DNA of 64,000 bases from Escherichia phage vB_EcoM_Lh1B, in the sequence record OK428535.1. The stretch is one strand, 5' to 3'. Below the pieces are notes generated by a model. It saw nothing but the letters and a program-made list of their open reading frames with translations, was not told the DNA's origin and searched no databases. Shown piece after piece: positions 1-25,352 of the stretch; the stretch's first letter is position 1, and every line of letters starts with the position of its first letter. The position numbers and the translations under genes were made by a program.

Positions 1-232
1 CTTCATCCATTTTGCAGTGATGGCATTACCTTGCTTTACAGTAAGGTTGTCAGTACCACTTAAACTGTTGTGTTGCTTCTCTACAGGTGTCTCTGTTGCA
101 TCGACAGCTGTAGGATTAATAAAGTTAACTTCGATAGGGATGACTTTAACTCGAGTGGCACCACGAGGTTTATCTTCCGCGACGATACCTATCGAGAAGA
201 TGTGCAACCCTGACTTAGATTTATTCATACCA
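1..232 (-). CDS. hypothetical protein, 5' part (ORF continues past left edge)
   Basis: Reverse-complement of 1-232 translates without stops from ATG (comp. 230-232): MNKSKSGLHIFSIGIVAEDKPRGATRV...; GAGGAGGG SD-like sequence upstream on minus strand; absent from ORF track because truncated. Confidence 0.5.
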
Positions 233-408
233 CCCTCCTCTCATACTACACTTTTTTACGTTTCGATCTCATCGTTTGACAATCGAGGAGTGTACGGGGG
301 TAAGGGGGTTTATGTATTGGATGCGAACATAAACGGAGGTATCCGTAGGATACCGACATCCTTTTTGTAGTTGACCTTGACTTTTAACCTAACGAGGAGT
401 GCAGTACC

Positions 409-726
409 ATGTCTTTATTTCAAACCATTAAAAGTGCATTAGAGCGTAATGATGCAGACAGTGCCTTTACTGCGTTACAGAAAGCCAGTAACGGGAAGCT
501 AGACAGCGTCTTTGCTAACAATCAAAGAATGCGCTTTTACAAAGTGGGGGAAGTAGACCAGTTCTACGACGAACTGTTTACGGGGGTAGTGCAAAGCGCG
601 GTATACGCCATGCCGACTGAACAATTAAGTCAGTTTGAAAAAGGGATGCGTTACCAGCGGTTAAGTAACGACTACGCATTACTGAATCTGGCTATCGATG
701 ACTGCGTCGTGCTGGTCGTATACTAA
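409..726 (+). CDS. hypothetical protein (105 aa)
   Basis: ORF track; GAGGAG 8 nt upstream of ATG. Confidence 0.55.
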   Translation: MSLFQTIKSALERNDADSAFTALQKASNGKLDSVFANNQRMRFYKVGEVDQFYDELFTGVVQSAVYAMPTEQLSQFEKGMRYQRLSNDYALLNLAIDDCVVLVVY

Positions 727-733
727 GTTTTTA

Positions 734-757
734 CAGATAGATGTCATCTTAGTGAGC
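734..757 (+). promoter_or_regulatory. class A upstream motif, divergent copy
   Basis: CAGATAGATGTCATCTTAGTGAGC resembles the AGAYAGATATTAYCTA family; intergenic upstream of 847 gene. Confidence 0.3.
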
Positions 758-846
758 ATTGTGTATAAACCCACAGTCGCTTAAACACCAACTGTTCTTT
801 AGTAACAGTTTTTGGTCGCTTTAGTGTACTTTAAAGGAAATACCAA

Positions 847-2085
847 ATGTATAACGAATACGAATTAGTTTACCAGACACCGAAAGAAGCATTCTTTAAT
901 GCAGTAATTACTAACTCAATTGTACTGTTGGGAATGCAGTTCAGTATTCGGAGTATGGCTTACAGCGACGTAACGTGGCAGGATTGTGCGTACCTGCCAC
1001 AAAAGCTCTCAACCGTTGTCGAAAAGCGGCTGCTTGACAAAGGGGAAGTAAAGTGCCGTTTAGGCCACCACGTCTCTGACTTTGAGCCGTGGGTTGAGTT
1101 AACCATGACATTCGAAGGGGATTCGCGGGTAGCTTACCTATCGGGTAATCAAAACATCGGACGCGCCATTGCTGAGGGTAACACAATGTGGGTGCACTAC
1201 ATTCTTACTCTGCTGACCGGTAAACCGGTGTTCGAGTTAACACCTGACATGCCCGCACTAAGCGATAGCAACTGGTGGACTGGCGGAGAGCTGAATACAG
1301 GGTTTAATGAGAAATTACAAAACTTTAATTCAGAGCGACTCGATGTTGATGCGGAAGTGTTAGTGCAGCAGTTCCCCGAATTCACTGCGTACCAAATTAC
1401 TACCGTATGGAATAGAGCGGTAAGCAAGCGCAGATTCTACACGAAAAACGCACCGCGTGAAGCAGCCAAACCTGTGGAAATTGACGAAGACACCAAAGAA
1501 GCACTGCGTGATCTAGTCACCATAGCCAATGATAGCAATATGATGTTCTGGACATCTGATGAAAACGCTAACCATTATTTCGGTGAGATGTTAGACGCCG
1601 ATGTTTGGTCAGTAATGCCGATAGCAGAGCCCGGAAACCTTAAAGATTACCATAAGGTCGAAAAAGGCGATGTGGTTAATGAGAAGGTCGTCACCCTTCT
1701 TAACGTTTTCCGCGAAGTTATCCAGTCAGAAATACTGTTAAGCATCTATAAACGCAAGACCCCGGCCAGTGAAAATGACACGGCGTGGGTATTTGACTGT
1801 CGACCGACAAATACAATATCGCCTGCGTTCTGGATACAGGTGACAGGAAAGCTGCAGCGTGTGAACAGTTCCGTTGTTTCTCGCCTGCCAGATTCTGAAA
1901 NGCGCTCCGTTGCCGAACCTGCTTATTTGNTGTCGGNGAAGGNGGTANGGGATGCGTGGGGTACCAACGAACTGAAACAGTGGCATTACGATGCCATCAT
2001 CAAATGGGGTGTTAACAATGGCTGGAAAGAAGTGACTAAGTACGGCCGTCAACTATTGTTTGTCGCTGATTTGCGTTTACTGTAA
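847..2085 (+). CDS. hypothetical protein (412 aa)
   Basis: Long ORF; AAGGAA upstream; followed by terminator hairpin; contains n-masked codons near C-terminus. Confidence 0.7.
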   Translation: MYNEYELVYQTPKEAFFNAVITNSIVLLGMQFSIRSMAYSDVTWQDCAYLPQKLSTVVEKRLLDKGEVKCRLGHHVSDFEPWVELTMTFEGDSRVAYLSGNQNIGRAIAEGNTMWVHYILTLLTGKPVFELTPDMPALSDSNWWTGGELNTGFNEKLQNFNSERLDVDAEVLVQQFPEFTAYQITTVWNRAVSKRRFYTKNAPREAAKPVEIDEDTKEALRDLVTIANDSNMMFWTSDENANHYFGEMLDADVWSVMPIAEPGNLKDYHKVEKGDVVNEKVVTLLNVFREVIQSEILLSIYKRKTPASENDTAWVFDCRPTNTISPAFWIQVTGKLQRVNSSVVSRLPDSEXRSVAEPAYLXSXKXVXDAWGTNELKQWHYDAIIKWGVNNGWKEVTKYGRQLLFVADLRLL

Positions 2086-2095
2086 TCTCGTCATC

Positions 2096-2124
2096 GGGGG
2101 TCTTGTACCCCCTTCTTATTTTTT
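2096..2124 (+). terminator. intrinsic terminator
   Basis: GGGGGTCTTGTACCCCC hairpin followed by TTCTTATTTTTT. Confidence 0.7.
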
Positions 2125-2145
2125 AACCGTAAAGAGTATTTAACC

Positions 2146-2727
2146 ATGCCACAACCAATTATTGAACAACATGAAATGAACTACGAAGAACTGACCCGCC
2201 GCTATCGCGTGAAAGCCCCACGGGTAGTAGAAGGTTGCGAGAAATACAAAGAAGCAGACTTCGTGGTATTCCAACGCGAAGGTGTTCCGATGCTGGTGTT
2301 CGTAAAACACGTCACCACCGATAACGACGACCGTCTAGTGATGCTGTATAACGTGATGGCTACCGTACTAGATACTGATATTGGGTTGTTACGTCGTTAT
2401 AAATCATCCTACGAACAGAAAGCGAAGGTGGTTGCTTTTGACTTACCACGCACGGTACTAGTAGATGGTTCCCGTCCGGCTATTCTTCGTTTTACGAAAA
2501 GCGAAGACGACAGTAACCCAGCGCATATTGTTCAGCCACTAACGCTGTCGCAAGATACGTTACAGCAGAACGGTGGGATGGATTGGCTAAACGTCATGTT
2601 ACCGGGCCTAGCTGAAGGTCAGGAACTGCATCTGGTTTGCTACACCCCATCCGTCGAGCACACCTATGCGCGTTACCTTACCGAAGAACACGGTTTCCGT
2701 AACCACCGTGGTATTTACATTGCGTAA
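2146..2727 (+). CDS. hypothetical protein (193 aa)
   Basis: ORF track; follows terminator; no recognisable motif. Confidence 0.65.
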   Translation: MPQPIIEQHEMNYEELTRRYRVKAPRVVEGCEKYKEADFVVFQREGVPMLVFVKHVTTDNDDRLVMLYNVMATVLDTDIGLLRRYKSSYEQKAKVVAFDLPRTVLVDGSRPAILRFTKSEDDSNPAHIVQPLTLSQDTLQQNGGMDWLNVMLPGLAEGQELHLVCYTPSVEHTYARYLTEEHGFRNHRGIYIA

Positions 2728-2736
2728 GGTGAGTGT

Positions 2737-3300
2737 ATGTTCCGTTTACTAGAAATTCGAAACGATATCTGGCAAGAGCACATCCGCAACGATCCGGAGT
2801 GGGAAGGGGTTGAAAGTGATTTACCGGATAACCCCGACCAGCTGTTGGTGTTCCTTTATAGCGATAAAGCCAAACAGATCAAGGGGATATTTGAACGTAA
2901 AACGACAAGCTTGTCGACCTTACTGAGCTGCATTTGCTGTGGCGTCAGTGAGCTTGATCCCAATCTATTCACCAACTATCTTGCGCGTAAAGTCCGTACA
3001 CCGCTACTGGAGGTTACACTCCCGCCAGATATTCGTATCAGTAAAACTGTACCGACTGTTTTGCGTTTACAGGATGTCTCTGGCAGCAGCGACGACGGGG
3101 AAACAACGATTACCCTTTCCTCGTCAGAGAGTGAACTCGCAACCGAATCGTTTCTTAGCGAAGTCGAGGCCGGATTAAAGCAGGACGTAATCGTCTATAA
3201 TCTCGGCGGTGTGCCCATTGAGCCCATTTTACACTTCTTTGAAAGCCAAACCTGCCATCTCGTAGAGAGCTTAACATATCACTTTAAAGGAGCCTTATAA
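2737..3300 (+). CDS. hypothetical protein (187 aa)
   Basis: ORF track; AAGGTGAG upstream. Confidence 0.65.
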   Translation: MFRLLEIRNDIWQEHIRNDPEWEGVESDLPDNPDQLLVFLYSDKAKQIKGIFERKTTSLSTLLSCICCGVSELDPNLFTNYLARKVRTPLLEVTLPPDIRISKTVPTVLRLQDVSGSSDDGETTITLSSSESELATESFLSEVEAGLKQDVIVYNLGGVPIEPILHFFESQTCHLVESLTYHFKGAL

Positions 3301-3584
3301 TGAAACTCGAAGGTTATATTGTTACTGATAAGCCGTTTGTTGAGGCTAACCTTTCACGTTCTCAAGTTGTCTATAAAGACATCGATGTCCCTGCTGAAAT
3401 TGTTAAAGCGAANCCCAGCTGGCNAATCAACCNCGTTTCTTTGGAAATCACNAANCCGTTTATCAACGANCCAACCGNCCCATTTGTCGACATGGGTAAT
3501 TTCCGCGAGATTCTTTCCCCGCATCAATACCAGACAGTTGCACAGAAGAAAGGGAAGCTGCTCATTGAAACGTTGAGTGTGTAG
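3300..3584 (+). CDS. hypothetical protein (94 aa)
   Basis: ATG overlaps upstream stop (TAATG); AAGGAG upstream; n-masked middle. Confidence 0.55.
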   Translation: MKLEGYIVTDKPFVEANLSRSQVVYKDIDVPAEIVKAXPSWXINXVSLEIXXPFINXPTXPFVDMGNFREILSPHQYQTVAQKKGKLLIETLSV

Positions 3585-3589
3585 TTTAT

Positions 3590-3630
3590 CTCCAGTAACC
3601 ACGAGGGTTACTGGAGTCCTCTTATTTTTT
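3590..3630 (+). terminator. intrinsic terminator
   Basis: CTCCAGTAACC-ACGAG-GGTTACTGGAG hairpin followed by TCCTCTTATTTTTT. Confidence 0.75.
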
Positions 3631-3663
3631 ACACTTAACTCAAATTAATTTGAGGTGTGGTAT

Positions 3664-4251
3664 ATGACAGAACGTATTTTACGACTGCAAGAGAACAAGT
3701 TAGAAGACCTGCACGTAATGCGTAGTCGTGGCTTGTTTCCGGTGGGGCTTGATGTGAGTGGATTATTAACTGCCGCAGAGCACGGGGATAGGGTCATTAC
3801 AATGCATTCGCGTGGGAGCGAAGTGGTCTCTGCGATTTTCATCGATAAGGTTATTCCAGACTCGGAAAGCGGTAGGGAGGCAGGACACATCATTTACGAA
3901 TACTTTCGCAGCATTCTATACGAGGAAAAGATAAATGTCAAAACTTTTATGGAGTACGCTAAGCGAAATAACTACATCGATGCGCGACTGATGGTCACGG
4001 AAGGCACCCCAACTATAAACGGTAAAGTCCATCATCGTTTACTTGGGGCGCAGTTGCCGAGACTGGGTGAGTTACCGACGNNGNTAGAGCTANACCAAAA
4101 AACAGATTGGCGACACAAAATCGAAGTGCTTCACAAGCTTTACGATTTATCGATCGTTCAAATCAAACTGGTGGACTTCACGCCTGCAAATATGCAAATC
4201 GCTAAGCGAGCATTGGGTTTTCGTATTCTTAACACAACCTTCACATTGTAA
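3664..4251 (+). CDS. hypothetical protein (195 aa)
   Basis: ORF track frame; start moved from GTG 3655 to ATG 3664 with TGAGGTG upstream. Confidence 0.65.
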   Translation: MTERILRLQENKLEDLHVMRSRGLFPVGLDVSGLLTAAEHGDRVITMHSRGSEVVSAIFIDKVIPDSESGREAGHIIYEYFRSILYEEKINVKTFMEYAKRNNYIDARLMVTEGTPTINGKVHHRLLGAQLPRLGELPTXXELXQKTDWRHKIEVLHKLYDLSIVQIKLVDFTPANMQIAKRALGFRILNTTFTL

Positions 4252-4256
4252 AATAT

Positions 4257-4283
4257 CTCAGATATATATTACCTAGGTGAGAG
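4257..4283 (+). promoter_or_regulatory. class A upstream motif (phage promoter-like)
   Basis: CTCAGATATATATTACCTAGGTGAGAG; near-identical copy at 62815-62840. Confidence 0.5.
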
Positions 4284-4303
4284 TTAAGAGATTAACTCAA
4301 CTG

Positions 4304-4331
4304 GCTACCCTCGGGTAGCCTATTCTTTTTT
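4304..4331 (+). terminator. intrinsic terminator
   Basis: GGCTACCC-TCG-GGTAGCC hairpin followed by TATTCTTTTTT. Confidence 0.75.
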
Positions 4332-4334
4332 AAA

Positions 4335-4350
4335 CCAATCGACTATAGAG
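4335..4350 (+). promoter_or_regulatory. class B upstream motif
   Basis: CCAATCGACTATAGAG directly after terminator T-run, about 20 nt before ATG. Confidence 0.4.
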
Positions 4351-4356
4351 TAAAAC

Positions 4357-4758
4357 ATGACTATCAAGAAGTTCTTACAAGCAGTAGTAGTTCTGGCCGC
4401 ATGTGGTATTGCAGCAACTTATGCTTTCGATAAGCCAGACGTGACTGAATACACATCAGCTGATTCGGATTATGGCATTGCACCGAATGAAAAACCGGAA
4501 CTGATGCGTGAGGTCGAACAGTTACAAATCTACAGACTGACGGACGGTAAGAACTGCACAGGGCTGGTTATCGCTGATAAGAAATTGAAAATGTATCAGC
4601 GGTTAATCGACATATCGTGCAATCAACCAAAAGTCACCTCGGTCAGTGTATCGCCACTGGAATTACCGAATTTGGTTGCTGTGAGCTTTTATCACAACGA
4701 TGTGCTCGTCGGTCGCATCACCCTCAATCGTGGAGATATCAAAAATGAAATGCAATAA
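4357..4758 (+). CDS. putative lipoprotein (133 aa)
   Basis: N-terminus MTIKKFLQAVVVLAAC with LAAC lipobox-like signal; preceded by terminator and conserved upstream motifs. Confidence 0.6.
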   Translation: MTIKKFLQAVVVLAACGIAATYAFDKPDVTEYTSADSDYGIAPNEKPELMREVEQLQIYRLTDGKNCTGLVIADKKLKMYQRLIDISCNQPKVTSVSVSPLELPNLVAVSFYHNDVLVGRITLNRGDIKNEMQ

Positions 4759-5236
4759 CGTCAATCGCCNCTTGGCCAAAGTGGTGCTTTTTACTGTGCT
4801 GTTGATGGCAGTTGTTGTTGGGCTACGGATTTCTAAGGCACGCGCTGACGAATTCAGCGGGTTCCAGGGCAGTATTAACGGCAGCATTCCAGCATATACC
4901 CGCACCATCAATCTTAATGATAAGCCGTTCTGGTGCAATGCGCGTAAGCTGCTTAAGAAACAGTGTCGTGTAGTTGACATATCCTTCAACGGTCGTGTCG
5001 CTATCGTACACCGTCCTGGCGATAAAGATTGCCCAGGTGGTTGGTGGGGTGCAGTCGACCGTCACAATGGTGACGCGTTATGGCTTATCCCTAATCGTGA
5101 TGAACTATCAGTGGAGAAAATTTGCAGCAAAGATTTCAGGGCCGGTTTTGTACAGCGACCGGATACCAAAACTCTGGCCTCCATCGCTATGTACTACGGT
5201 ATGGAAACCATCAAAACAATCGACTATTCAGAATAA
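4745..5236 (+). CDS. small exported/membrane-anchored 4-Cys protein (paralog family member)
   Basis: Start set to ATG 4745 (GGAG upstream, 14-nt overlap with previous gene); hydrophobic N-terminus; PFWC motif and 4 Cys shared with next gene. Confidence 0.6.
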   Translation: MKCNNVNRXLAKVVLFTVLLMAVVVGLRISKARADEFSGFQGSINGSIPAYTRTINLNDKPFWCNARKLLKKQCRVVDISFNGRVAIVHRPGDKDCPGGWWGAVDRHNGDALWLIPNRDELSVEKICSKDFRAGFVQRPDTKTLASIAMYYGMETIKTIDYSE

Positions 5237-5258
5237 CTCAAAAAATTGAGGTACTATT

Positions 5259-5669
5259 ATGAAACATTTTTTATTACCAGTTTTACTTGCTACTCTGGCC
5301 ATTAGCTTCTTCGCTCGCGCTGGAAGTATCGAGTTACCAAAAGTTGTTAACGATCACGAATACGGCGGGCCGTTCTGGTGCCAGAACTCTGACGTACAAG
5401 GCGGTAGCTGTCAGATCGTTGCGATGTCCGATAACAACCGTTACCTGTTAGTGAAAACGATGGGCGGTGTCGCATGTGGCGACCCTGAATACGGGGTTAT
5501 TAACATGGCAACAGGTCAGGCCGAATCCATGAACTACAATGATAACCAAGCCTGCAGTGGTGAAGCCGTTGCTGAGTTTACTCGCGACCCAGGTGATAAT
5601 GCCCTGACGGTTATCATGTACGACCCTACGATTAAGAAAAACGTGGGCATCAATAAACTCGACTTTTAA
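5259..5669 (+). CDS. small secreted 4-Cys protein (paralog family member)
   Basis: Signal-peptide-like MKHFLLPVLLATLAISFFARAGS; PFWC motif; 4 Cys. Confidence 0.65.
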   Translation: MKHFLLPVLLATLAISFFARAGSIELPKVVNDHEYGGPFWCQNSDVQGGSCQIVAMSDNNRYLLVKTMGGVACGDPEYGVINMATGQAESMNYNDNQACSGEAVAEFTRDPGDNALTVIMYDPTIKKNVGINKLDF

Positions 5670-5682
5670 GTAAGGAAACAAC

Positions 5683-6066
5683 ATGCGTGGACTTATGGGT
5701 ATTATCGCGGCGGTGTTCTTGACCGCTTCTGCTTCAGCTACAACCAGCGTAGAAGATTTACTGCCAGGCACACCGTATCAGTACAACCCGCCTTCATTCG
5801 AAGTCTGTACTGGCGACAATGGCAGATGTGAAGAAGTCAGCCGTCACGACGAGTATATCCTGGTCCACGCAAAGGGCGAGGAAACTTGTCCGGCTGGTTA
5901 CTACTTCTTGTTGAACTCAAAGGCACAAGAGATTGTGCCGGTAGAGACAATAACGTGCGACCCGACGCTTCGCGCGTCGCTCGCTTACAATACGAAAACC
6001 AAACAACGCCTCCTGGTTATTGAACAGCAAGGGGTGGTGCGTGGTTCAGTAGCGCTCGACCAGTAA
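5683..6066 (+). CDS. small secreted 4-Cys protein (paralog family member)
   Basis: Signal-peptide-like MRGLMGIIAAVFLTASASA; C-x7-C plus two further Cys; AAGGAAA upstream. Confidence 0.65.
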   Translation: MRGLMGIIAAVFLTASASATTSVEDLLPGTPYQYNPPSFEVCTGDNGRCEEVSRHDEYILVHAKGEETCPAGYYFLLNSKAQEIVPVETITCDPTLRASLAYNTKTKQRLLVIEQQGVVRGSVALDQ

Positions 6067-6077
6067 CCGAAAAGTTT

Positions 6078-6100
6078 TCAGACAGATGTTATAACGTGAG
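6078..6100 (+). promoter_or_regulatory. class A upstream motif, divergent copy
   Basis: TCAGACAGATGTTATAACGTGAG followed by small hairpin 6096-6117. Confidence 0.35.
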
Positions 6101-6122
6101 ATGACGACCCATCTCACTTTGG

Positions 6123-6166
6123 CCCTGCGGTGATTTCCCCAACACTTAGCCGCAGGGTCCTTTTTA
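6123..6166 (+). terminator. hairpin with T-run (terminator/attenuator-like, long loop)
   Basis: CCCTGCGG...CCGCAGGG stem with about 20-nt loop followed by TCCTTTTT. Confidence 0.4.
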
Positions 6167-6178
6167 ATCGACTATTAC
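6165..6178 (+). promoter_or_regulatory. class B upstream motif
   Basis: TAATCGACTATTAC after hairpin/T-run, before GTAAGGATT RBS region. Confidence 0.45.
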
Positions 6179-6195
6179 TCGTAAGGATTAAGCAA

Positions 6196-6696
6196 ATGAA
6201 CATGAACATTCTCGACGATACCCGTTCTTCTTTCTTTACTCAGATGAACGTCAATCCCGAACGTACCCNTGCCATTCTTTCCACTGGCTGGAAGTTAAAG
6301 CTGTTAGGCGAGTTAACCCTAAACCGCACCGACTGGCCAGAAGAAGCGACCGTATTGATTAACAGCATTCACAGCGAGTGGCTAGATGCTGCGTTGAATG
6401 CCCCACAACTACGTCCGTACTATCGGATGCTTCATGCGGGTTATGAAGTATACCGCAAAGGTTGGTACGCTGCAGCCACTTATTGCAAAACCCCTGAAGG
6501 TCGTGAAGACAACACTGTCGACCACGTATTAGTAAACAATTTCTGGGGCGACCAAATCGAAGTCTTACAACTTTCCACCGGNGACCGTATTCCGGCCTGT
6601 GAGTTATTCGAAACTAACGCACAAATGTACGAACCATATGCAATGATTCGTGGCCGTAAGGTCCCAATCATTTCCCTTATGCATATGGGGCTGTAA
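6196..6696 (+). CDS. hypothetical protein (166 aa)
   Basis: Start set to ATG 6196 downstream of hairpins and TTAATCGACTATTAC motif; track ORF starts further upstream at 6130. Confidence 0.6.
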   Translation: MNMNILDDTRSSFFTQMNVNPERTXAILSTGWKLKLLGELTLNRTDWPEEATVLINSIHSEWLDAALNAPQLRPYYRMLHAGYEVYRKGWYAAATYCKTPEGREDNTVDHVLVNNFWGDQIEVLQLSTXDRIPACELFETNAQMYEPYAMIRGRKVPIISLMHMGL

Positions 6697-6704
6697 ATAC
6701 GAGA

Positions 6705-6732
6705 GGTAGCCCGTAGGCTACCTTCTTTTTTT
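6705..6732 (+). terminator. intrinsic terminator
   Basis: GGTAGCC-CGTA-GGCTACC hairpin followed by TTCTTTTTTT. Confidence 0.75.
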
Positions 6733-6750
6733 GTTGAAGAAGGATTAAAC

Positions 6751-7377
6751 ATGAACGAGATTACCCTGATTCGTTTCATCGACGACATGGTGACGTGTCA
6801 GAAAGCGAATCGTCAGGATACCAAACTGCGTATCAATCTGATGGAAGAAGAGGTAGAAGGGTTTCTGGAATACCCGCGATTGGTGAAGTGGTTTAAAGAA
6901 GCGCTGCCGCGTAGCTGGGAACAGCTAGAAGCGTGGTTTGCTCTACCTATTGCAGAACGTAATCCCAATAATACGATCTTCACCGGAACTACTGCATTAG
7001 ATTTGGCTGGTTCGGTGGAGCAACCTAAACGTTTAGTTTTCTTCTACGTCAATGGCGATTCAATAATGGCTGATACAGTTAACTGGATTTCCGATGAGTT
7101 AACTGTAAACACCACTTTGGTCGGTAGCGCTGCTGATGCCTGGGTTGTTGGTCAGCACCAATCGCAACCGTACGAAGAAATCAAAACCGGTTATTTAATC
7201 CCGATATATCTCGACGGCGTGGCACCGGGTCGCAGCGCAGAACTGTTCAAATTCCTGCTTACTGAAACGTTAAAGGTTGTCGATTCTGATGCCGGGCGTG
7301 CGTGGTATGAATTAACCAAAGAGCGCACCGATAGTTTTTGGGAATCACTCGGACACCGTAAGTTTATTCCGCAATAA
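6751..7377 (+). CDS. hypothetical protein (208 aa)
   Basis: ORF track; bracketed by terminators; no clear Mre11 phosphoesterase motifs. Confidence 0.65.
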   Translation: MNEITLIRFIDDMVTCQKANRQDTKLRINLMEEEVEGFLEYPRLVKWFKEALPRSWEQLEAWFALPIAERNPNNTIFTGTTALDLAGSVEQPKRLVFFYVNGDSIMADTVNWISDELTVNTTLVGSAADAWVVGQHQSQPYEEIKTGYLIPIYLDGVAPGRSAELFKFLLTETLKVVDSDAGRAWYELTKERTDSFWESLGHRKFIPQ

Positions 7378-7388
7378 CTCTCCTCTCT

Positions 7389-7420
7389 GGAACCCTTCGG
7401 GGTTCCATTTNTTCTTTTTT
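7389..7420 (+). terminator. intrinsic terminator
   Basis: GGAACCC-TTCG-GGGTTCC hairpin followed by T-rich run. Confidence 0.75.
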
Positions 7421-7473
7421 ACGCATGACCTTTTGGATATGAACNNCTAATNCTTTCTCATTANAAGGCAAAC

Positions 7474-9984
7474 ATGCACAAGGTCGAACGTATCATTTTN
7501 AAAGNNTTTACCGGCATGGGGTTACATGAAANNNAAANNTTTGATTTCACCCTTAANTCAACCGTTACCANCATCCTCGGTGGCAACGGCTGCGGTAAAA
7601 CAAGCCTCCTGTCTGTTTTTCTCCCCTTAGCTCCAGCAAAATCAGAATTCCGTGAAGGTGGTTCCTACACTAACTACGCGTTAGTTGGGGACGACCGTCT
7701 TAAGTTTGAAGTCCTGCGTCGTGGCTCTTCTCTGTCTTGTAGTATTTTCAATATCACTAAAGGTGTCTCCATCGTAGACTCGGTAAACGCCAAAGTTTAC
7801 AACTCCATGGTGGAGCAATTAACCGGAATCACCAAAGAAATCAAAGAGTTAATTAATGGTGAGACCTTATTAACTGACGCCACTACCGAAGTTCGTCGTA
7901 AATGGTTTACGTTAATGTCAGAATCTGATCTGACGTACGTTGTTGGTTGCTATCGACGTTTGCGTAAACTCGCTTCCAGTTTAAGTGGGGCCATTGAGCA
8001 CACCGGCCGTAAAATCGGTGAGGCAAAAATGCGCGTGGTGGACGATGAAGAAGATCGTGCACGTTTAGAAGTTCGTTTGAAAGAACTCGATGCTGAGCTT
8101 CAGGAATTAAACCGCACAATTGAAGCGAGACCCGGTTTAGATAACGCCGTTTCGGTTGATAGTATCCGGAAACGCATTGCTTCGTTGCAACCGGCTGTAA
8201 AACTCATTATGGAACGTTATGGCGTTCTGCCTTCTGACGAACTGATTAACGAGTTTCAAAGTCGTGTGGTTGCCTGGCGTGAGCAAGCTGCCTCTGCTGA
8301 AACTGAATGCAACATGTACAATAAAGAGTTGTCACAGCTACTGGATGAGGAGTCGCGTCAAGCGTATCTGATGCGCAACCATACCGGTCTAAAACAAACA
8401 ATCGACAGCTTAAAACAGGAACTGGCAACGTTCCAACAGAACTGGATGTTCCCGGCTCTGTTTGAAGGTACCCGCATTGATGTGGATAGCATTCAGAACG
8501 CGTTAAACGATGCCTGTAACTGGAATTTACCGTTGTCCATGCATCTGGACCAGTTAAAGACAACAGATCGCCTGGGAGCGTTAGAGAAGCGTTTACAGGG
8601 TATGGATTTAACCTCTGCGGGTCTATCTGAAAAGCTGCAACGTTGTGAGAATGTGCTACACGGTTTATACCACGACCGTCAACACTTCTTAGAAACTGCA
8701 GAAGTTGATTGTCCACAGTGTAACCACCGTTTCCGTCCTGGGATTCGTAAGTCGTTACCTGAAATTGAAAAGGCCATCAACGATAATGAAGGTTGGAAGA
8801 AGCAGCTGAAAGACGAAATGGATAGTCTTTTGCGTGACCGCAAAGAGATTGAAGAGGACGTCCGTAGCTTACGTACGATTCGCGAAATCGTCATGTCGTA
8901 TTCCAACCATCCTGTTGTCGGTTTGTTTTTCCGTAAACTGCAGGAGCTGGATATCTTCACCACGGCGCGGGATCGTTACGGTGCCATTGCACGTGCCTTT
9001 ACTGAAGAGCTAGATTCGGCCATGATGTATCTGCGTCAATCGGCGAAGCTTGCAACAGCGGAACGGGAATGGCAAGAGGCTGTTGCCGCAGTAGGTAACG
9101 TTGATGGTGCGCTGAGCCAGAAAATTGAACATATCCGTTCACAACTGGACGGGGCTAACCGTCGACTGATAGAATACCGCAGACAAGCCAATGAGCTGGA
9201 ACGCGAAACCACCCAACTGCAACAAACCAAAGAAGCAATCGAACGTTTCCAAAAAGGCTACGAACATCTGGTATCGGAAATGAACATCTCCGTTAACAAC
9301 GTCGTGGTTCGTGAGTTGTTAAACCGACGCGAAGCGAAGCTCGATGCGTATACTTCAGCTCGTGAACGGTTTCGTCAAATGGAAGGGGCTATTGCACGTT
9401 TAGCGGAATTGGAAAAAGAGCAAGCTGAGTTGCTCAAAGAACACCATCNNGNCNGATTGATTATCAATGCCGTCTCACCCGAAAAAGGATTATTGCGTCG
9501 TTACTTTTATGCTGCGATTACCCGCATCATGGATTTAATGAATCGGTATATCGAAATGGTGTGGGCATATCCGATGCAGGTTATTCCATGCGATCTAACC
9601 GACGGGGATTTGGATTATACTTTCCCGGTGCGATTAAAAGACCATGAAGAACTGGTGCCGGATGTGAAGAAAGGTTCGAAGGCACAGCGTATTATCTTTA
9701 ACATGATGTTTCGTTTAACGGCGTATAAAGCGCTTGGTTTACAAAACTATCCTTTGTTNTTNGATNAANCCNCNNAAGGCATGGATGAANAACANAAAAA
9801 NCGCCTGGTCAACTTCTTTAAATCGTTGGNGTTGTTGGGGGAGTTTTCTNAANTGCTGGTCGTTTCGCATGAAGCGGAAGTTCATTCTAAACTTAACGAA
9901 GCCACCTACTGTGTCGTGGAGCCAGAAGGTGTAACGCTTCCACCGGTTTATAACGAAGGGGTAATAATCAAATATGCATCATAA
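7474..9984 (+). CDS. SbcC/Rad50-like SMC-family ATPase
   Basis: Walker A GGNGCGKTS near N-terminus; long predicted coiled-coil middle with CPQC (CxxC hook-like) near residue 410; C-terminal ...LVVSHEAEV after partly n-masked Walker B/signature region. Confidence 0.75.
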   Translation: MHKVERIIXKXFTGMGLHEXXXFDFTLXSTVTXILGGNGCGKTSLLSVFLPLAPAKSEFREGGSYTNYALVGDDRLKFEVLRRGSSLSCSIFNITKGVSIVDSVNAKVYNSMVEQLTGITKEIKELINGETLLTDATTEVRRKWFTLMSESDLTYVVGCYRRLRKLASSLSGAIEHTGRKIGEAKMRVVDDEEDRARLEVRLKELDAELQELNRTIEARPGLDNAVSVDSIRKRIASLQPAVKLIMERYGVLPSDELINEFQSRVVAWREQAASAETECNMYNKELSQLLDEESRQAYLMRNHTGLKQTIDSLKQELATFQQNWMFPALFEGTRIDVDSIQNALNDACNWNLPLSMHLDQLKTTDRLGALEKRLQGMDLTSAGLSEKLQRCENVLHGLYHDRQHFLETAEVDCPQCNHRFRPGIRKSLPEIEKAINDNEGWKKQLKDEMDSLLRDRKEIEEDVRSLRTIREIVMSYSNHPVVGLFFRKLQELDIFTTARDRYGAIARAFTEELDSAMMYLRQSAKLATAEREWQEAVAAVGNVDGALSQKIEHIRSQLDGANRRLIEYRRQANELERETTQLQQTKEAIERFQKGYEHLVSEMNISVNNVVVRELLNRREAKLDAYTSARERFRQMEGAIARLAELEKEQAELLKEHHXXXLIINAVSPEKGLLRRYFYAAITRIMDLMNRYIEMVWAYPMQVIPCDLTDGDLDYTFPVRLKDHEELVPDVKKGSKAQRIIFNMMFRLTAYKALGLQNYPLXXDXXXXGMDEXXKXRLVNFFKSLXLLGEFSXXLVVSHEAEVHSKLNEATYCVVEPEGVTLPPVYNEGVIIKYAS

Positions 9985-10165
9985 AGGTTGGCGCTTATGG
10001 GCTTGGTGGGGTTTCCAGTTCCTTCAGTTTGTTGTGATGGTACTGTACCTCTCCTTTTGTGCAACCGTAGTGGTTATCGCTGCGGTCGTTTATTTAGCTG
10101 CTGCTCTTAAAGAACGTCTGTTCGACACGCGTTGTGAGTGGCGAGATATGGGGGAACGGACATGA
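9974..10165 (+). CDS. small hydrophobic membrane peptide (63 aa)
   Basis: ORF track; W-rich then TM-like VVMVLYLSFCATVVVIAAVVYLAAAL; overlaps upstream stop. Confidence 0.4.
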   Translation: MHHKGWRLWAWWGFQFLQFVVMVLYLSFCATVVVIAAVVYLAAALKERLFDTRCEWRDMGERT

Positions 10166-10266
10166 TTGAAGGTATCGTATTAACCGGTATTGCACTGTGG
10201 TTGATTCGTGGTGCCTGGGGTTGGATTATCCGCACGAAAGGATGGGCGTTCCATGGCAACACGTAA
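10162..10266 (+). CDS. tiny membrane peptide (34 aa)
   Basis: ATGA overlap with previous stop; translates MIEGIVLTGIALWLIRGAWGWIIRTKGWAFHGNT; below ORF-track size cutoff. Confidence 0.3.
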   Translation: MIEGIVLTGIALWLIRGAWGWIIRTKGWAFHGNT

Positions 10267-10444
10267 ACCACGTCGCTTAAAATCTTGGGNGGTTGTGGTA
10301 ATGCACACTGTAGTGTTGCTGGGTNTTTTCTTGTCTCGTGCCACNCCTGCCTTTTGGGGCTTAGTTGTTTTGGTGTTCTTAGAAGGGGTTTACTTCGGTA
10401 ATCTGTGGAGCAAGCCCCCCGNGTTTAAGGGACCCGGCTTATGA
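10253..10444 (+). CDS. small membrane peptide (63 aa)
   Basis: ATG 10253 within track ORF 10208-10444; MATRKPRRLKSW then hydrophobic stretch; n-masked codons. Confidence 0.3.
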   Translation: MATRKPRRLKSWXVVVMHTVVLLGXFLSRAXPAFWGLVVLVFLEGVYFGNLWSKPPXFKGPGL

Positions 10445-10572
10445 CAGTCGTGAATAGTGTCAACGCGGCGATGATTGNAACGGGTGCGTATGACGGTGCC
10501 ACATGGACAGATGTTGGTATCACGCTTATCATTTGCGCAATCGGAGCGTTTGTAGCAACATGGTTATTTTAG
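10441..10572 (+). CDS. tiny membrane peptide (43 aa)
   Basis: ATGA overlap with previous stop; ...GITLIICAIGAFVATWLF hydrophobic C-terminus. Confidence 0.3.
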   Translation: MTVVNSVNAAMIXTGAYDGATWTDVGITLIICAIGAFVATWLF

Positions 10573-10685
10573 TGAAATGGGTTGGGTGTATCGTCTGTAG
10601 CCTGATACTAGGAGCGGGCGCATACGCCCTAGGCGCAATCCTTGCATTGACGCAAGGTTGGTTTTAACAGGAGGGTAATTACGAA

Positions 10686-10964
10686 GTGGGAGAAGTATCA
10701 TGTAACAGTGAAACAGTCTCTGATCCCGTGGTCGTGGGTTCAGGGGCGGCCGAGCCAACCCGGCGTATCGTTCTTTCGAGCGCGGGGATGGCTATAGGGT
10801 CTTCAAAGAACCTTCTAGCAGACATCGCGGAAGTCTGCGGGCCGGATGATTTTGCAGTTTCACGTACAGTCGGGGAAGACTGGCGTGGTAATCAGAAGCG
10901 CCATGAGCGAATGTGGCGACGGAAGGTTACCTCAGCATCGCGACGTTTTCAACGTCGTTGCTGA
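10686..10964 (+). CDS. hypothetical protein (92 aa)
   Basis: ORF track; AGGAGG upstream; overlaps alternative ORF 10846-11166 so uncertain. Confidence 0.3.
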   Translation: MGEVSCNSETVSDPVVVGSGAAEPTRRIVLSSAGMAIGSSKNLLADIAEVCGPDDFAVSRTVGEDWRGNQKRHERMWRRKVTSASRRFQRRC

Positions 10965-11110
10965 TTATAGACACGGTTCCGATAGAGAACTGGTCTTCAC
11001 CTCTGGCGGTATACACCGCTTAAGTTTACCGGTAAACTTAAGAAAACACAAACCCAATTCTTCGTTACTCNCTTTCATCGCAGGTGAAAGCTCACTTAGG
11101 AATTCAGCTC

Positions 11111-11599
11111 ATGGCCGAAATTGTCATTCTTTCCTCATCCTCAGATTTAACGGAAGCACAAAATAAACAGCTGTTGGGGCTGCATTATAAATTTCTGAAC
11201 CACCAACGTACCATACTCCATATCGAAAAAGGTGAGATTCCGAACCTCACTCTGGAGAAACTGTTGGCGGGGAACCGTGCTTGTGTTGCTCTGGAAGGGG
11301 GTACCCCTGTTGGTTACTGTTTGTATCGCGTAATCGCTGGGGTTCTGAAGATTCGTACGATGTTCGTGTCTGAAATGGCACGCCGTCGTAAAACGATGAC
11401 GCAGATTTTTGATGCGCTTGATGTGAATGNGCAGTTCACCAGTGCGCATGGGGGAATATACGCTTGCCAGGAAGCTGGTATTGCGTTCTTTACCNCTCGC
11501 GGTTTTGACAAGACCGTCTCTACAGACGGACAATGGCTTGAATTTAAGAAGCAGGTTCTTGCGGAAGCAGATGAACCTTTAAGGACTGCGGTAGCATAG
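11111..11599 (+). CDS. possible GNAT-family acetyltransferase (weak)
   Basis: Start set to ATG 11111 (AGGAA upstream); ...GTPVGYCLYRV...MFVSEMARRRKTMTQIFDAL...ACQEAGIAFFT.RGF resembles GNAT core and C-terminal motif only loosely. Confidence 0.4.
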   Translation: MAEIVILSSSSDLTEAQNKQLLGLHYKFLNHQRTILHIEKGEIPNLTLEKLLAGNRACVALEGGTPVGYCLYRVIAGVLKIRTMFVSEMARRRKTMTQIFDALDVNXQFTSAHGGIYACQEAGIAFFTXRGFDKTVSTDGQWLEFKKQVLAEADEPLRTAVA

Positions 11600-11670
11600 T
11601 CCTGTTTTAGCACTCCTTACGATTATGCCTCACTATGAGTGGGGTATTTTTTACGCGAGGAGTGCTATTT

Positions 11671-11880
11671 ATGTTTCACCGTCCCGGGTTTTCAGCTTTA
11701 AACACCGATGTCTGTTGGGCTGAGTACGAGCGGGTGAAGGAGTTCTTACCCGTAAATCCTAAACACATCAACGTGGGTACTATCGGGCGTGTTGCGTTCG
11801 ATGACACTCCGCTGAGTACGTGTATTAAAGCTGCGCTTGGTACGCTGCCGGCGTCTATAGTGTTTGAGGAATTAAAATGA
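11671..11880 (+). CDS. hypothetical protein (69 aa)
   Basis: ATG 11671 with GCGAGGAG upstream within track ORF 11635-11880. Confidence 0.4.
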   Translation: MFHRPGFSALNTDVCWAEYERVKEFLPVNPKHINVGTIGRVAFDDTPLSTCIKAALGTLPASIVFEELK

Positions 11881-12395
11881 CGGACATTCGTGTTGACATA
11901 TATGGGGAAATTCATACCACGGCCGATCGTAATCGTGTTGAATGGGCTATCATCGATAACCATCGGAAAAAACCATACGATTTTTTACTGTGTGAAGAAC
12001 TGGGGCCGTATGAACATCACACTGCAAAAGCGCAAGATAAGGCATTAAAGGAGAAGATGTACTCTATTGGACCCATGGGGCTGGAGTTGGCTAAGAAACT
12101 CGGCATCCCTGCTATTGGGATCGATGACTGGAGCGACGCAACCTACGCTAAAGATATCAAGGATAAAAAGGGAATGGCTGTAAACTTTAGCCGTTCTTTT
12201 TATATTNGTGAAACTAAAATGGTTGCAAAAATTAAAAAGTATATGGCAAAAGGGCGTTGTGCTGTTATGCTTGGCGACTCACACTTGCGCACCACGAAAA
12301 CTAAAGAGCTTGGTGATGCGTCCCTTATCTGGGAAACGTTTAAGGATAATCCTGAAGTGAAGTTTCACAGGAGCCCTAAACGCGAGATTGATTAA
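11877..12395 (+). CDS. hypothetical protein (172 aa)
   Basis: ORF track; ATGA overlap with upstream stop. Confidence 0.6.
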   Translation: MTDIRVDIYGEIHTTADRNRVEWAIIDNHRKKPYDFLLCEELGPYEHHTAKAQDKALKEKMYSIGPMGLELAKKLGIPAIGIDDWSDATYAKDIKDKKGMAVNFSRSFYIXETKMVAKIKKYMAKGRCAVMLGDSHLRTTKTKELGDASLIWETFKDNPEVKFHRSPKREID

Positions 12396-12413
12396 ATCTA
12401 AAGGAGCATTAAA

Positions 12414-12836
12414 ATGGTTACCGCTATTCGCGAAACAAAATCACTATACGATCATTTATCAGAAGAAGAAACAGCCTTATTCTACGACCTGTTACCTGAA
12501 ACCAAAGCAAATGTTCAGTGGTGGTTACGTTTAGCGCTACGTGATAAAGTTGGGGAAACGCCGGTTAGTATTCTCGCACACACGTTGGACATGACACCCA
12601 TGATTGAAATCGCGATTACCCGCCCTAAATTCTGGCGACCTGGTATGGTGCGTGAGGCGTATCTACTCCAACGCTTAGGTGTTGACCCGGAGAAGTGTTG
12701 GCGTAAGATGGACGACCATCGCTACCGTGAAGAAATTACGAATAGCCTCAACACTATGTTGGCAATGAAACGACTCGGTATCGAANACGAAGGTTTCGAG
12801 TCTGCGGTGCAAGCGTGGGTGAGAAGGAATAGCTAA
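12414..12836 (+). CDS. hypothetical protein (140 aa)
   Basis: AAGGAGCATTAAAATG start context. Confidence 0.6.
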   Translation: MVTAIRETKSLYDHLSEEETALFYDLLPETKANVQWWLRLALRDKVGETPVSILAHTLDMTPMIEIAITRPKFWRPGMVREAYLLQRLGVDPEKCWRKMDDHRYREEITNSLNTMLAMKRLGIEXEGFESAVQAWVRRNS

Positions 12837-13085
12837 ATGCAAAAAACAATCATCGGAATAATGGTTAGTTCTTTCTGTGGTTTCCCTACCCCGCAGACAG
12901 AACCCCAATATTTGGGCGCAGGCAAACCTGATCCGGAAGTCCGTAAGTTGCGCGAAGAAGCAAAAGCCAGAGTTCTTACTGAGCTGGAATCGTTGCTTCA
13001 GTCTCCGGTTATTTCACAATGGGGTATGGCAATAGATGTCACTCGAACTGATCGACGAGGCTATTATCTCCCACGACCTGTTTAA
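12837..13085 (+). CDS. hypothetical protein (82 aa)
   Basis: ORF track; 3' end overlaps macrodomain gene start by about 50 nt, so uncertain. Confidence 0.35.
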   Translation: MQKTIIGIMVSSFCGFPTPQTEPQYLGAGKPDPEVRKLREEAKARVLTELESLLQSPVISQWGMAIDVTRTDRRGYYLPRPV

Positions 13086-13536
13086 CGCGCCTGAGCGCTT
13101 CAAGGTCGTTACAGTTAACTGTGTTGGTGCAATGGGAAGGGGCATTGCCTTGGCGTGCCGAGAACGCTTCCCATCGCTTTATAATGACTATCGCCAGAAA
13201 TGTCGTAAAGAGCAAATCGTTATCGGTGAGGTCTATTGTTATCCTGAGGAAGGGGTAATACTCCTTCCTACTAAAACCCATTTTCGCTATAAATCGCAGA
13301 TTTACTATGTCACGTCCGGCATTGATGCGCTGGCGCGACTAGGGGAAGACTTAGAAGGAGGGATTGCGATACCNCCCCTAGGGATGGCTAACGGTTGGTT
13401 ACGTTACCATGAGCGATTGGAAATCTTTATACACTTACAGAAACGACTACAGCACACGGAGCAGACTTATCGATTCTATTTACCAGACACCCTGCTGAGG
13501 GAAGCAGAGAAAATCATCCCAAAAAGTTTCAAATAG
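13036..13536 (+). CDS. macrodomain protein, TARG1/DarG-like
   Basis: DLFNAPERFKVVTVNCVGAMGRGIALACRERFP...IGEVYCYPEEGVILLPTK...GGIAI.PLGMANGWL lines up by eye with the TARG1-type block DLFxCP...C....RMGAGIA...FKKKF...GEV...TK...P.IGCG. Confidence 0.65.
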   Translation: MSLELIDEAIISHDLFNAPERFKVVTVNCVGAMGRGIALACRERFPSLYNDYRQKCRKEQIVIGEVYCYPEEGVILLPTKTHFRYKSQIYYVTSGIDALARLGEDLEGGIAIXPLGMANGWLRYHERLEIFIHLQKRLQHTEQTYRFYLPDTLLREAEKIIPKSFK

Positions 13537-13559
13537 ATATTATTATCAGGGCACATTAC
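13533..13559 (+). promoter_or_regulatory. class A upstream motif, divergent copy
   Basis: ATAGATATTATTATCAGGGCACATTAC resembles ATAGATATTATCTACAGGGAC at 22623. Confidence 0.35.
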
Positions 13560-13635
13560 AAAGGAGCACAATGCCGTCCGCGCCGTCTTCCCGGATTGGG
13601 AACGGAAAAGTATAAATCCGTTTGGAGATACATCC

Positions 13636-14358
13636 ATGTTTCNCACCATTTTATTTCTTCTGGTAGCAGTGACCACATTCAACAGCAACGCTTCTTACCA
13701 GACCACCAGTAACAAACACCAAAAAGAATTCGTCCTTATCCAGGACCAGTTCAATGAGATTAAACCTCTCATCGTCACCGCATCTCGAAAACAAGGCGTA
13801 CATGCCGGGATGCTCGCGACCACCATTTATCGTGAATCCCGTTTTAATAAAAACGTGGGTAAGAATAAATCGAGCAGTGCTAGTAGTGTTGTCCAAATGA
13901 CGACAGGCACTAAACGCTCCATGATACGTCTGTATGGGAAACAACTTAACATCCCAAAGAATGCGGACCTTAATAAACCGAAGTATGCTGTACAGCTTGC
14001 TGCCGTTTACATGAAACACATCGAGGATCATCTGACAAAACAACTCAAACGCAAGCCGAGCACAGCCGAAATCGCTTTAGGCTATCGCTTCGGTGAGGGT
14101 GCCGCTGTTGCGATGATTAAAAAGAAATCACCGGTCGGGAAACGCTGGATGGCNNGCNACNGAAAAGACGCAGCATTCTACGGTGCGAAAATGACACCAC
14201 CGAAAGNTGAAANACNNCNGNTTNNNTTTGNGNAGGNAGNCCANGNCCAACGNGTCGCCGAACTTCAGAAAATCTGGGATACGCTGTACACCAAAATATC
14301 ACCTGCGGCCGGTACATTACTGGCAAATAACACTATCATGAAAGGAGCATTGCTATGA
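13636..14358 (+). CDS. lytic transglycosylase-like protein with N-terminal hydrophobic signal/anchor
   Basis: Hydrophobic N-terminus MF.TILFLLVAVTTF; YRESRFN...SSASSVVQMT...AAVYM resembles the SLT E-S motif block; GGAGA upstream; C-terminal third n-masked. Confidence 0.55.
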   Translation: MFXTILFLLVAVTTFNSNASYQTTSNKHQKEFVLIQDQFNEIKPLIVTASRKQGVHAGMLATTIYRESRFNKNVGKNKSSSASSVVQMTTGTKRSMIRLYGKQLNIPKNADLNKPKYAVQLAAVYMKHIEDHLTKQLKRKPSTAEIALGYRFGEGAAVAMIKKKSPVGKRWMXXXXKDAAFYGAKMTPPKXEXXXXXFXXXXXXQXVAELQKIWDTLYTKISPAAGTLLANNTIMKGALL

Positions 14359-16460: not shown

Positions 16461-16478
16461 TGCGATAAAAAATAAAAG

Positions 16479-16516
16479 CCTACCTACTCCCAAGGGAGTA
16501 GGTAGTTCTTTTTTTC
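16479..16516. terminator. bidirectional intrinsic terminator
   Basis: CCTACCTACTCCC-AAG-GGAGTAGGTAG hairpin flanked by A-run upstream and T-run downstream, between convergent genes. Confidence 0.75.
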
Positions 16517-16517
16517 T

Positions 16518-17141: not shown

Positions 17142-17151
17142 TTAACCCTCC

Positions 17152-22618: not shown

Positions 22619-22620
22619 TC

Positions 22621-22646
22621 TGAGATAGATATTATCTACAGGGACG
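22621..22646 (+). promoter_or_regulatory. class A upstream motif (phage promoter-like)
   Basis: TGAGATAGATATTATCTACAGGGACG with internal palindrome TAGATATTATCTA. Confidence 0.45.
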
Positions 22647-24209: not shown

Positions 24210-24219
24210 GGAGCATTAG

Positions 24220-25298: not shown

Positions 25299-25303
25299 TT
25301 AAA

Positions 25304-25338
25304 CGGACACTCTTCGGGGTGTCCGTAGTTTTATTTTA
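25304..25338 (+). terminator. intrinsic terminator
   Basis: CGGACAC-TCTTCGG-GGTGTCCG hairpin followed by TAGTTTTATTTT. Confidence 0.75.
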
Positions 25339-25352
25339 ATCGACCATTAATC
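25337..25352 (+). promoter_or_regulatory. class B upstream motif
   Basis: TAATCGACCATTAATC directly after terminator T-run. Confidence 0.45.

Follow-up and report, generated by a model that had tools for sequence, protein, structure and literature searches.

A recurrent intergenic element of an SPN3US-like jumbo phage is a probable early promoter for the virion RNA polymerase

The phage and the analyzed region

The window analyzed here is a stretch of 64,000 nucleotides from sequence record OK428535.1. Its first 20 kb are 96-98% identical over their full length to Salmonella phage SPN3US and close relatives, and 60-80% identical to Erwinia jumbo phages. The window is collinear throughout with positions 161185-224459 of SPN3US (NC_027402.1), with few indels. 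SPN3US is a phiKZ-related, nucleus-forming jumbo phage, and mass spectrometry of its virions revealed five subunits of a virion RNA polymerase (RNAP), namely gp42, 218, 240, 241, and 244 (Ali et al., 2017). The phage studied here is itself phiKZ-related and, like SPN3US, presumably packages a split multisubunit RNAP in its virion. The genes for gp218, gp240, and gp241 are situated in the window (Table 1). Because Pfam recognizes no domain in the virion RNAP ORFs of the window, the identity of these genes rests on the record annotation and the literature.

Three differences from SPN3US are visible along the alignment. About 225 bp of SPN3US (164764-164989) are missing from the window near position 3579, and about 800 bp of the window (36361-37157) have no megablast match to SPN3US. 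A segment of 987 bp (window 25298-26284) is absent from SPN3US at the corresponding place. It contains a 307-aa ORF (25367-26290) with no Pfam match and possesses its own upstream terminator and leader box (described below), without a copy of the element that is the subject of this report; it looks like an inserted gene cassette.

Seven copies of a long element

The initial annotation, made from the sequence, described a class A motif that recurs ahead of gene blocks, with near-identical copies at 4257 and 62815. All seven copies listed there are present within 1-2 nt of the positions given (Table 1), and the two named copies differ at only 2 of 25 bases. All seven are situated at gene boundaries, upstream of an ORF on the + strand. 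Copy 2 lies between the stop codon of the ORF at 3655-4251 and the terminator at 4303-4320.

The short core proves nothing by itself, because a search of the window for the 13-mer with at most three mismatches gave 14 matches versus 12.1 expected, which is not significant; the signal needs the flanks. When the seven copies are aligned, conservation reaches about 18 nt upstream and 10 nt downstream of the core, and the length of the element is about 35-39 nt, not 13. A 39-column matrix (PWM) was built from 24 forward-strand copies of SPN3US. In the window it finds exactly seven sites, all on the + strand and with scores of 21.9-48.1 bits, and the next best position scores -1.8 bits. In 200 Markov-shuffled windows the best score had a mean of 4.0 and a maximum of 16.1 bits. 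A held-out matrix, trained only on the 17 SPN3US copies outside the window region, also ranks the same seven sites at the top, from 46.1 down to 8.1 bits, followed by the next best at 2.6 bits. Since the matrix finds the same seven sites and no others in the 64 kb, the initial list was complete and contained no false entries. Copy 3, the weakest of the seven, may be inactive.

Table 1. Positions of the element copies, associated leader and terminator features, and virion RNAP genes in the window. Scores are in bits, with the held-out score in parentheses; +1 denotes the predicted start.
Feature	Coordinates	Strand	Initially listed at	PWM score (held-out)	Details
Class A copy 1	720-758	+	734	37.8 (34.1)	Core CAGATAGATGTCATCT at 734-749; predicted +1 G754; downstream gene 847-2085
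Class A copy 2	4245-4283	+	4257	48.1 (46.1)	Best in window; core CAGATATATATTACCT at 4259-4274; -10-like ATATTAC at 4266-4272; predicted +1 G4279; downstream gene 4357-4758
Class A copy 3	6065-6103	+	6078	21.9 (8.1)	Weakest; spacer one base short, G at 6098; downstream gene 6196-6696
Class A copy 4	13516-13554	+	13533	32.8	Predicted +1 G13550; overlaps end of ORF 13036-13536; downstream gene 13636-14358
Class A copy 5	22608-22646	+	22621	37.7	Predicted +1 G22642; downstream gene 22672-23406
Class A copy 6	31146-31184	+	31158	40.0	Divergent junction after - strand ORF 30663-31133; predicted +1 G31180; downstream gene 31210-31740
Class A copy 7	62803-62841	+	62815	43.1	Predicted +1 G62837; downstream gene 62890-63288
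5'-terminal stem-loop, predicted copy 2 transcript	4281-4298	+			RNA fold
5'-terminal stem-loop, predicted copy 7 transcript	62837-62857	+			RNA fold; from the exact predicted +1
Other +1 hairpins	6098-6115, 754-782, 31180-31192				
Intrinsic terminator	4303-4332	+			Stem 4303-4320 and U run; 24 nt downstream of predicted +1 of copy 2, upstream of gene
Similar terminator arrangements	6121-6160 (copy 3), 790-810 (copy 1)				
Intrinsic-terminator hairpin, then T run	62753-62783	+			From sequence; end of upstream operon, just before copy 7
Leader "B box" AATCGACTAT	4339-4346	+			In 5' UTR of copy 2
Further leader boxes	6168-6175, 62861-62868, 25340-25347, 63740-63747				
Virion RNAP subunit genes gp240 and gp241	51899-57736	+			Collinear with SPN3US 212357-218194
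Third virion RNAP subunit gene, gp218	29322-29990				Collinear with SPN3US 189763-190431

Anatomy of the element

The full consensus of the 24 SPN3US copies is acTcnAaaaaaTTTCAGATAGATATTATCTangTGAg, which can be divided into the blocks acTcnA-aaaaa-TTTCAGA-TAGATATTAY-CTangT-GAg. Its layout is an A (-29), an A-rich tract, TTTCAGA (-20), TAGATATTAY (-10), six bases, and a G. This conserved G is the seventh base after TATTAY (a spacer of 6 nt) in 23 of the 24 copies, and the numbering used here takes it as +1. The A at -29, followed by the A-rich tract, is invariant (24/24), and G-18, A-17, A-15, A-13, T-12, T-10, T-9, and A-8 are likewise invariant or nearly so. TTTCAGA spans -21 to -15 and the (T)AGATATTAY box spans -14 to -7. 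Within the latter, matrix columns 22-27 (A T A/G T T A) show little or no variation among the 24 copies, with ATATTAY as the resulting box. The element combines an extended, highly conserved AT-rich box of the TATATTAC / TATATTAT type, centered near -10, with further conserved blocks near -20 and -30.

Two subclasses, TAGATATTATCT and TATATATTACYTAGGTGAG, can be distinguished. The commoner is near-palindromic (CAGATAGATATTATCT). The other (CAGATATATATTACYTAGGTGAGAG) includes six almost identical SPN3US copies, among them those at window 4257 and 62815; these six match over about 30 nt and have similar leaders.

Distribution in the genome and downstream genes

A matrix scan of the whole SPN3US genome, seeded from the seven window copies, revealed 24 strong sites, all on the + strand. 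Although the genome is 93.6% coding (6.4% non-coding), 23 of these sites are intergenic (binomial P = 7e-27). Equal frequency inside coding regions, which the initial annotation had named as an outcome that would speak against its reading, is thus not what is found. The sole intragenic copy (SPN3US 25208-25257) falls within the annotated gene 23886-25493, ends 267 nt short of the gene that follows, and may be an internal promoter. For most copies in SPN3US, the end of the core is 32-141 nt upstream of the next start codon on the + strand.

This arrangement extends beyond SPN3US. When copies from SPN3US, Erwinia phages, and uncultured jumbo-phage contigs are pooled, 73 unique ones remain, and in 66 of these a Shine-Dalgarno sequence and a same-strand ORF come next within 150 nt, as opposed to 13% of random positions; the predicted leaders have a median length of 51 nt. 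In IMG/VR, 120 stretches contain the 16-mer core according to an exact-pattern scan. Matches to all 39 nt of the element, at a score of at least 30 bits, are found there overwhelmingly in contigs of 150-246 kb, including phiEaH2, ChrisDB, Caitlin, Phobos, and several uncultured jumbo-phage genomes; chance matches to the core only are in small unrelated contigs. In SPN3US the element is present in tens of copies, nearly all of them intergenic, and is co-oriented with the downstream operon.

The genes that follow the copies in SPN3US are informative. Site 28951 is directly upstream of two genes for RNAP homologs (29014-33356), and sites 15596 and 15689 are upstream of the chimallin gene (15768-17621) and the next RNAP-homolog gene (to 19299). 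The gene at 15768-17621 (RefSeq gp244) was identified as a chimallin homolog (Laughlin et al.). The RNAP homologs at 29014-33356 and after chimallin are assigned to the non-virion enzyme by elimination, because they are absent from the five virion subunits. The non-virion RNAP of SPN3US must be made by the injected polymerase. On the other hand, none of the 24 copies is directly upstream of a virion RNAP gene or of any - strand structural block. In SPN3US the copies would serve early genes, including those of the non-virion RNAP and of the nuclear shell, and not virion genes.

Among the proteins encoded downstream of the seven window copies, Pfam detects an SLT domain in the product of 13636-14358 (a transglycosylase) and gives no match for the other six, as is usual for early genes. 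One of the six near-identical SPN3US copies is directly followed (region 94221-94675) by a gene annotated as encoding an HTH DNA-binding protein (94310-94675), a candidate for an early-made regulator.

Conservation in related phages

The 68 kb of phiEaH2 that are syntenic with the window contain six sites, all on the + strand; the best score on the - strand is 6.8 bits. Four of the six precede homologs (37-64% identity) of the proteins downstream of window 720, 13516, 22608, and 31146. The counterpart of copy 1 is at phiEaH2 84320, and the orthologous sites of copies 4, 5, and 6 are at 98714, 107594, and 116289, with downstream proteins that are 64, 37, and 58% identical, respectively. The remaining two sites are syntenic with 4245 and 62803, and their downstream proteins have no detectable homology. 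Copy 3 (6065) has no counterpart in these 68 kb.

The intergenic region that contains copy 7 (window 62744-62889) was compared with the orthologous regions of phiEaH2, Machina, and SPAsTU. In all three relatives the order of features is kept: a terminator hairpin, an A-rich tract, GATATAT(A/T)TTACYTAGGTGA, a hairpin that varies in sequence, the box CGACYAT, a Shine-Dalgarno sequence, and the codon ATG, whereas the flanks diverge. The terminator slot before copy 7 is also occupied by a hairpin of different sequence in each of the three.

Comparison with known early promoters

Infection by phages of the phiKZ type is independent of the host RNAP. The early motif of this group is AT-rich, about 10 nt long, and centered near -10; wherever tested, it is an early promoter, and it has been attributed to the virion RNAP. 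The initial annotation noted a resemblance between the core and the AT-rich early consensus of phiKZ, TATATTAC. This resemblance is borne out, as the phage is phiKZ-related, the extended architecture is the same, and the published strings match.

The closest published strings are those predicted for N1M2 (TBYAWWWWWTTTCARRYAKATATTATYWAAGTGWA) and OBP (BSHAWWWWWTTTYARRYAKATATTATYWWADTG); those given for 201phi2-1 and phiKZ are ...TTTRARR_BTATATTACDWHDGTG and TATATTAC, respectively (Lewis et al., 2020, PMC7058600). Over about 33 nt, the consensus described here is nearly identical to those of OBP and N1M2 (A, W5, TTTCA, RRYAKATATTATY, WAAGTG). N1M2 has 31 copies and SPN3US has 24, and in both phages copies are situated ahead of genes for RNAP subunits and a transglycosylase. 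OBP and N1M2 have other hosts and belong to other genera, whereas the present element, with its two subclasses, is from a Seoulvirus on Salmonella. The OBP and N1M2 motifs and the present one are alike in being bioinformatic predictions only. 201phi2-1 and phiKZ share TATATTAC...GTG with the SPN3US consensus.

Early promoters of phiKZ and 201phi2-1 are conserved at -10, -20, and -30 (PMC8244752; PMC10914365; PMC11512511), and the conserved blocks of the present element are in the same places. Also common to both are the TATATTAC box about 10 nt 5' of the start (a predicted one in the present case), the G 6 nt after the box, and the location before the chimallin gene. In the first 50 kb of phiKZ, intergenic TATATTAC sites have the layout A-rich, TTNAGA/TTAAAC, TATATTAC, 6N, G. 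An early promoter motif is present at the primary transcription start of phiKZ gp54, the chimallin gene (Wicke et al., 2020, PMC8244752), and the site upstream of this gene scores 31.7 bits under the SPN3US matrix, although most phiKZ sites are weak under it (3-25 bits). The -20 block differs, being TTTCAGA here and TTTAAAC or TTAAGAT in phiKZ/201phi2-1. Furthermore, the positions of the phiKZ and 201phi2-1 sites come from primer extension, dRNA-seq, or ONT-cappable-seq, whereas the present ones are predicted from sequence.

In AR9, 41 starts mapped by dRNA-seq define early promoters of the form AAATATATATTAT-(6N)-G+1, and in phiKZ and phiR1-37 the start likewise follows the box at a distance of 6 nt (Lavysh et al., 2017, PMC5312081). 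Early transcription in AR9 is independent of chloramphenicol and was hence attributed to the virion RNAP (PMC5312081). The AR9 box is nearly identical to AGATATATATTAC of the present element, and in both a spacer of 6 nt leads to a G, which is the mapped start in AR9 and the predicted one here; the conserved G after TATTAY fits the rule of AR9, phiKZ, and phiR1-37. However, AR9 infects Bacillus, has uracil in its DNA, and forms no phage nucleus, and its stated consensus is without the TTTCAGA and -29 A blocks.

Early motifs have been stated in two papers to exist for all phages of the group, and such a motif is already expected by specialists in every one of them. Among the papers searched, none was found that prints the element for SPN3US; the AR9 genome paper (Lavysh 2016) is said to present the early motifs of all related phages.

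A probable early promoter for the virion RNA polymerase

Taken as a whole, the element is best explained as an early promoter of this SPN3US-like phage (Seoulvirus, phiKZ-related) for the virion RNAP, to which we give a probability of roughly 0.85. By analogy with phiKZ, 201phi2-1, and AR9, a split multisubunit RNAP would be packaged in the virion and injected together with the DNA. Alone or with a co-injected factor, this enzyme would recognize the element of about 35 bp through the A at -29 and the A-rich tract, TTTCAGA at about -20, (T)AGATATTAY at -14 to -7, and the 6-nt spacer. Transcription would then start at the conserved G of GTGAG without the host RNA polymerase, and would yield host-takeover proteins and, elsewhere in the genome, the non-virion RNAP and the nuclear-shell protein. 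Observed directly are the motif and its statistics, the rules of strand and position that it follows, the degree to which it is conserved, and its agreement with the mapped promoters of relatives. Because transcript data come from relatives only, the start site and the label "early" rest on analogy; it is likewise from the relatives that we infer that initiation probably takes place at the G of GTGAG, early in infection, and that the enzyme reading the motif is presumably the virion RNAP. Not all seven copies need be active, since a single deviation can abolish the activity of an AR9 promoter (PMC5312081) and the spacer at 6065 is 1 nt short.

The initial annotation regarded an operator as equally possible. 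A dimeric phage regulator would bind the dyad TAGATA-T-TATCTA, flanked by TCA..TGA, instead of or beside a promoter function, and an early-made repressor is conceivable given the annotated HTH gene (SPN3US 94310-94675) downstream of one copy. The consensus of the commoner subclass is indeed near-palindromic, and the reverse strand of some sites scores 17-31 bits, but all six symmetric pairs are complementary in only 7 of 82 unique copies. Moreover, there is no selection for symmetry, because the complementarity of symmetric columns equals the expectation for independent columns (e.g., 0.39 vs. 0.38; 0.51 vs. 0.51). The subclass that is most conserved, TATATATTACYTAGGTGAG, lacks the symmetry, and so do the flanks, with an A tract at one end and GTGAG at the other. 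All 24 copies of SPN3US point the same way, and AR9 and phiKZ share the box without the dyad. With no covariation in the palindrome, few full dyads, and an asymmetric conserved subclass, the two readings do not stand on an equal footing. A pure operator is unlikely, and even when an added regulatory role is counted with it, the idea seems improbable.

It could also be supposed that the element is read by the non-virion RNAP as a middle-class promoter, or is expressed continuously, rather than being used by the injected virion enzyme. The timing of these transcripts is deduced indirectly, the transglycosylase gene (13636-14358) and genes of some abundant proteins are downstream, and several non-virion RNAP genes of 201phi2-1 have middle or late promoters. 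Nevertheless, the middle and late motifs of phiKZ (TACT at -22; TATG at +1) and the middle/late motif of AR9 (AACA-6N-TA/G) are unlike the element, whereas the mapped early motifs match it closely. Nor can every gene of the non-virion RNAP require that same enzyme for its transcription, and in N1M2 the motif precedes both an RNAP subunit gene and a transglycosylase gene (PMC7058600). We consider a middle-class or continuous promoter to be rather implausible.

Recognition by the host sigma-70 RNAP, with TATTAT as the -10 hexamer, is very improbable. A TATAAT-like hexamer is contained in TAGATATTAT; however, 17 nt upstream of TATTAT the matrix reads "acTcn", not TTGACA, and the combination of a TTGACA-like -35, a spacer of 16-18 nt, and a TATAAT-like -10 is not found. 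A consensus scan of window 1-14000 placed no + strand site at any of the four copies there, and sigma-70-like sites in this region are fewer than in shuffles (15 vs. 20.0). The conserved blocks of the element extend past anything that sigma-70 uses, and infection of the phiKZ type does not depend on the host RNAP. Finally, dispersed repeats without function, or recombination cassettes that gene shuffling has left behind, might be suspected from the six SPN3US copies that are almost identical over about 30 nt with similar leaders and from the strain-specific inserted gene (window 25298-26284) that carries the same leader box, but this is hardly credible, since orientation and position upstream of ORFs are strict, individual bases are invariant amid diverging flanks, positions are kept in phages whose proteins are only 37-64% identical, and promoter function is in any case compatible with cassette mobility.

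The promoter interpretation would provide a map of predicted early transcription units, seven in the window and 24 in the genome, with predicted starts, and it points to A-29, A-13, T-12, T-10, A-8, and G+1 as the bases most likely to matter. Among nucleus-forming jumbo phages, SPN3US is the Salmonella model that is amenable to genetics. The element is nearly identical in phages of Salmonella, Erwinia, Klebsiella, and Pseudomonas, which indicates that the virion RNAP is very conservative in how it recognizes promoters. No sigma-like specificity factor is known for this enzyme, and for this reason the conservation of the element should be useful for biochemistry and for annotating early genes in new jumbo phages.

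Hairpins, terminators, and a box in the leaders

Of the 82 unique copies, 42 have a hairpin (at least 5 bp) that starts at the predicted +1 to +3, compared with 12.6 +/- 3.1 (maximum 20) in shuffles and 6-14 in displaced windows. The stems differ in sequence between copies and between orthologs, and that of copy 7 is kept in orthologs with different sequences, i.e., by compensatory changes. The enrichment of hairpins anchored at +1 provides independent support for the predicted start position and suggests a stabilizing 5' stem-loop. Over their first 34 nt, the leaders are indistinguishable in mean folding energy from random 34-mers of the genome (-4.9 vs. -5.1 kcal/mol); among the folding tests, only the position-specific one, with the hairpin anchored at +1, is significant.

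In three of the seven window copies (720, 4245, and 6065), a terminator-like hairpin is situated before the gene (regions 754-815, 4279-4332, and 6098-6165), so that a full-length early mRNA from these copies would need read-through. The predicted transcript from 4279 would end near 4332, and more generally the arrangement predicts short RNAs of 50-70 nt, or attenuation, at the three copies. In phiKZ and 201phi2-1, too, mapping has located terminators in 5' UTRs that give rise to short RNAs.

The leaders also contain a box, (T)AATCGAC(T/C)ATTA, also written AATCGACYATTA and often followed by ATCTAAAGGAGTATT. Its end is 18-21 nt before the start codon, and it is always 3' of a hairpin or T run. 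The box is found downstream of 19 of 82 class A copies versus 2 expected. Two further boxes, at 25340 and 63740, have no class A site, and the former is within the 987-bp insertion. Possible roles are those of an enhancer or operator of translation, a site of processing, or a second class of promoter. A middle promoter or a nut-like antitermination site was considered and fits poorly with a position downstream of terminators and 18-21 nt from the start codon. Rfam gives no match anywhere in the window.

Promoter, +1 stem-loop, and box might together constitute an "early leader module" that makes abundant RNAs of 50-70 nt and controls early mRNAs, a proposal that we regard as tentative and would not expect to hold in full. 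Such a module would control stability, processing, or translation via an RNA-binding factor or an attenuation switch. The T4-type PeSL cassettes, reportedly described by Arbiol et al. in 2010, are said to combine a terminator/stem-loop with an early promoter in a module between small early genes; they are reportedly associated with the shuffling of gene cassettes and carry promoters read by the host sigma-70 RNAP. The present module resembles them in being compact, repeated, and associated with cassette shuffling, whereas here the promoter would be specific to the phage polymerase and the hairpin is at the predicted 5' end of the transcript. The same leader accompanies the strain-specific inserted gene of window 25298-26284.

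Terminator-like hairpins are twofold more frequent in window 1-14000 than in shuffles (31 vs. 13.6). This punctuation by intrinsic terminators, together with no enrichment of sigma-70-like sites in the same region, fits a genome that is not read by the host RNAP. A single ambiguous base (N) is present at about window 7411, within the T run 3' of the terminator hairpin at 7388-7407.
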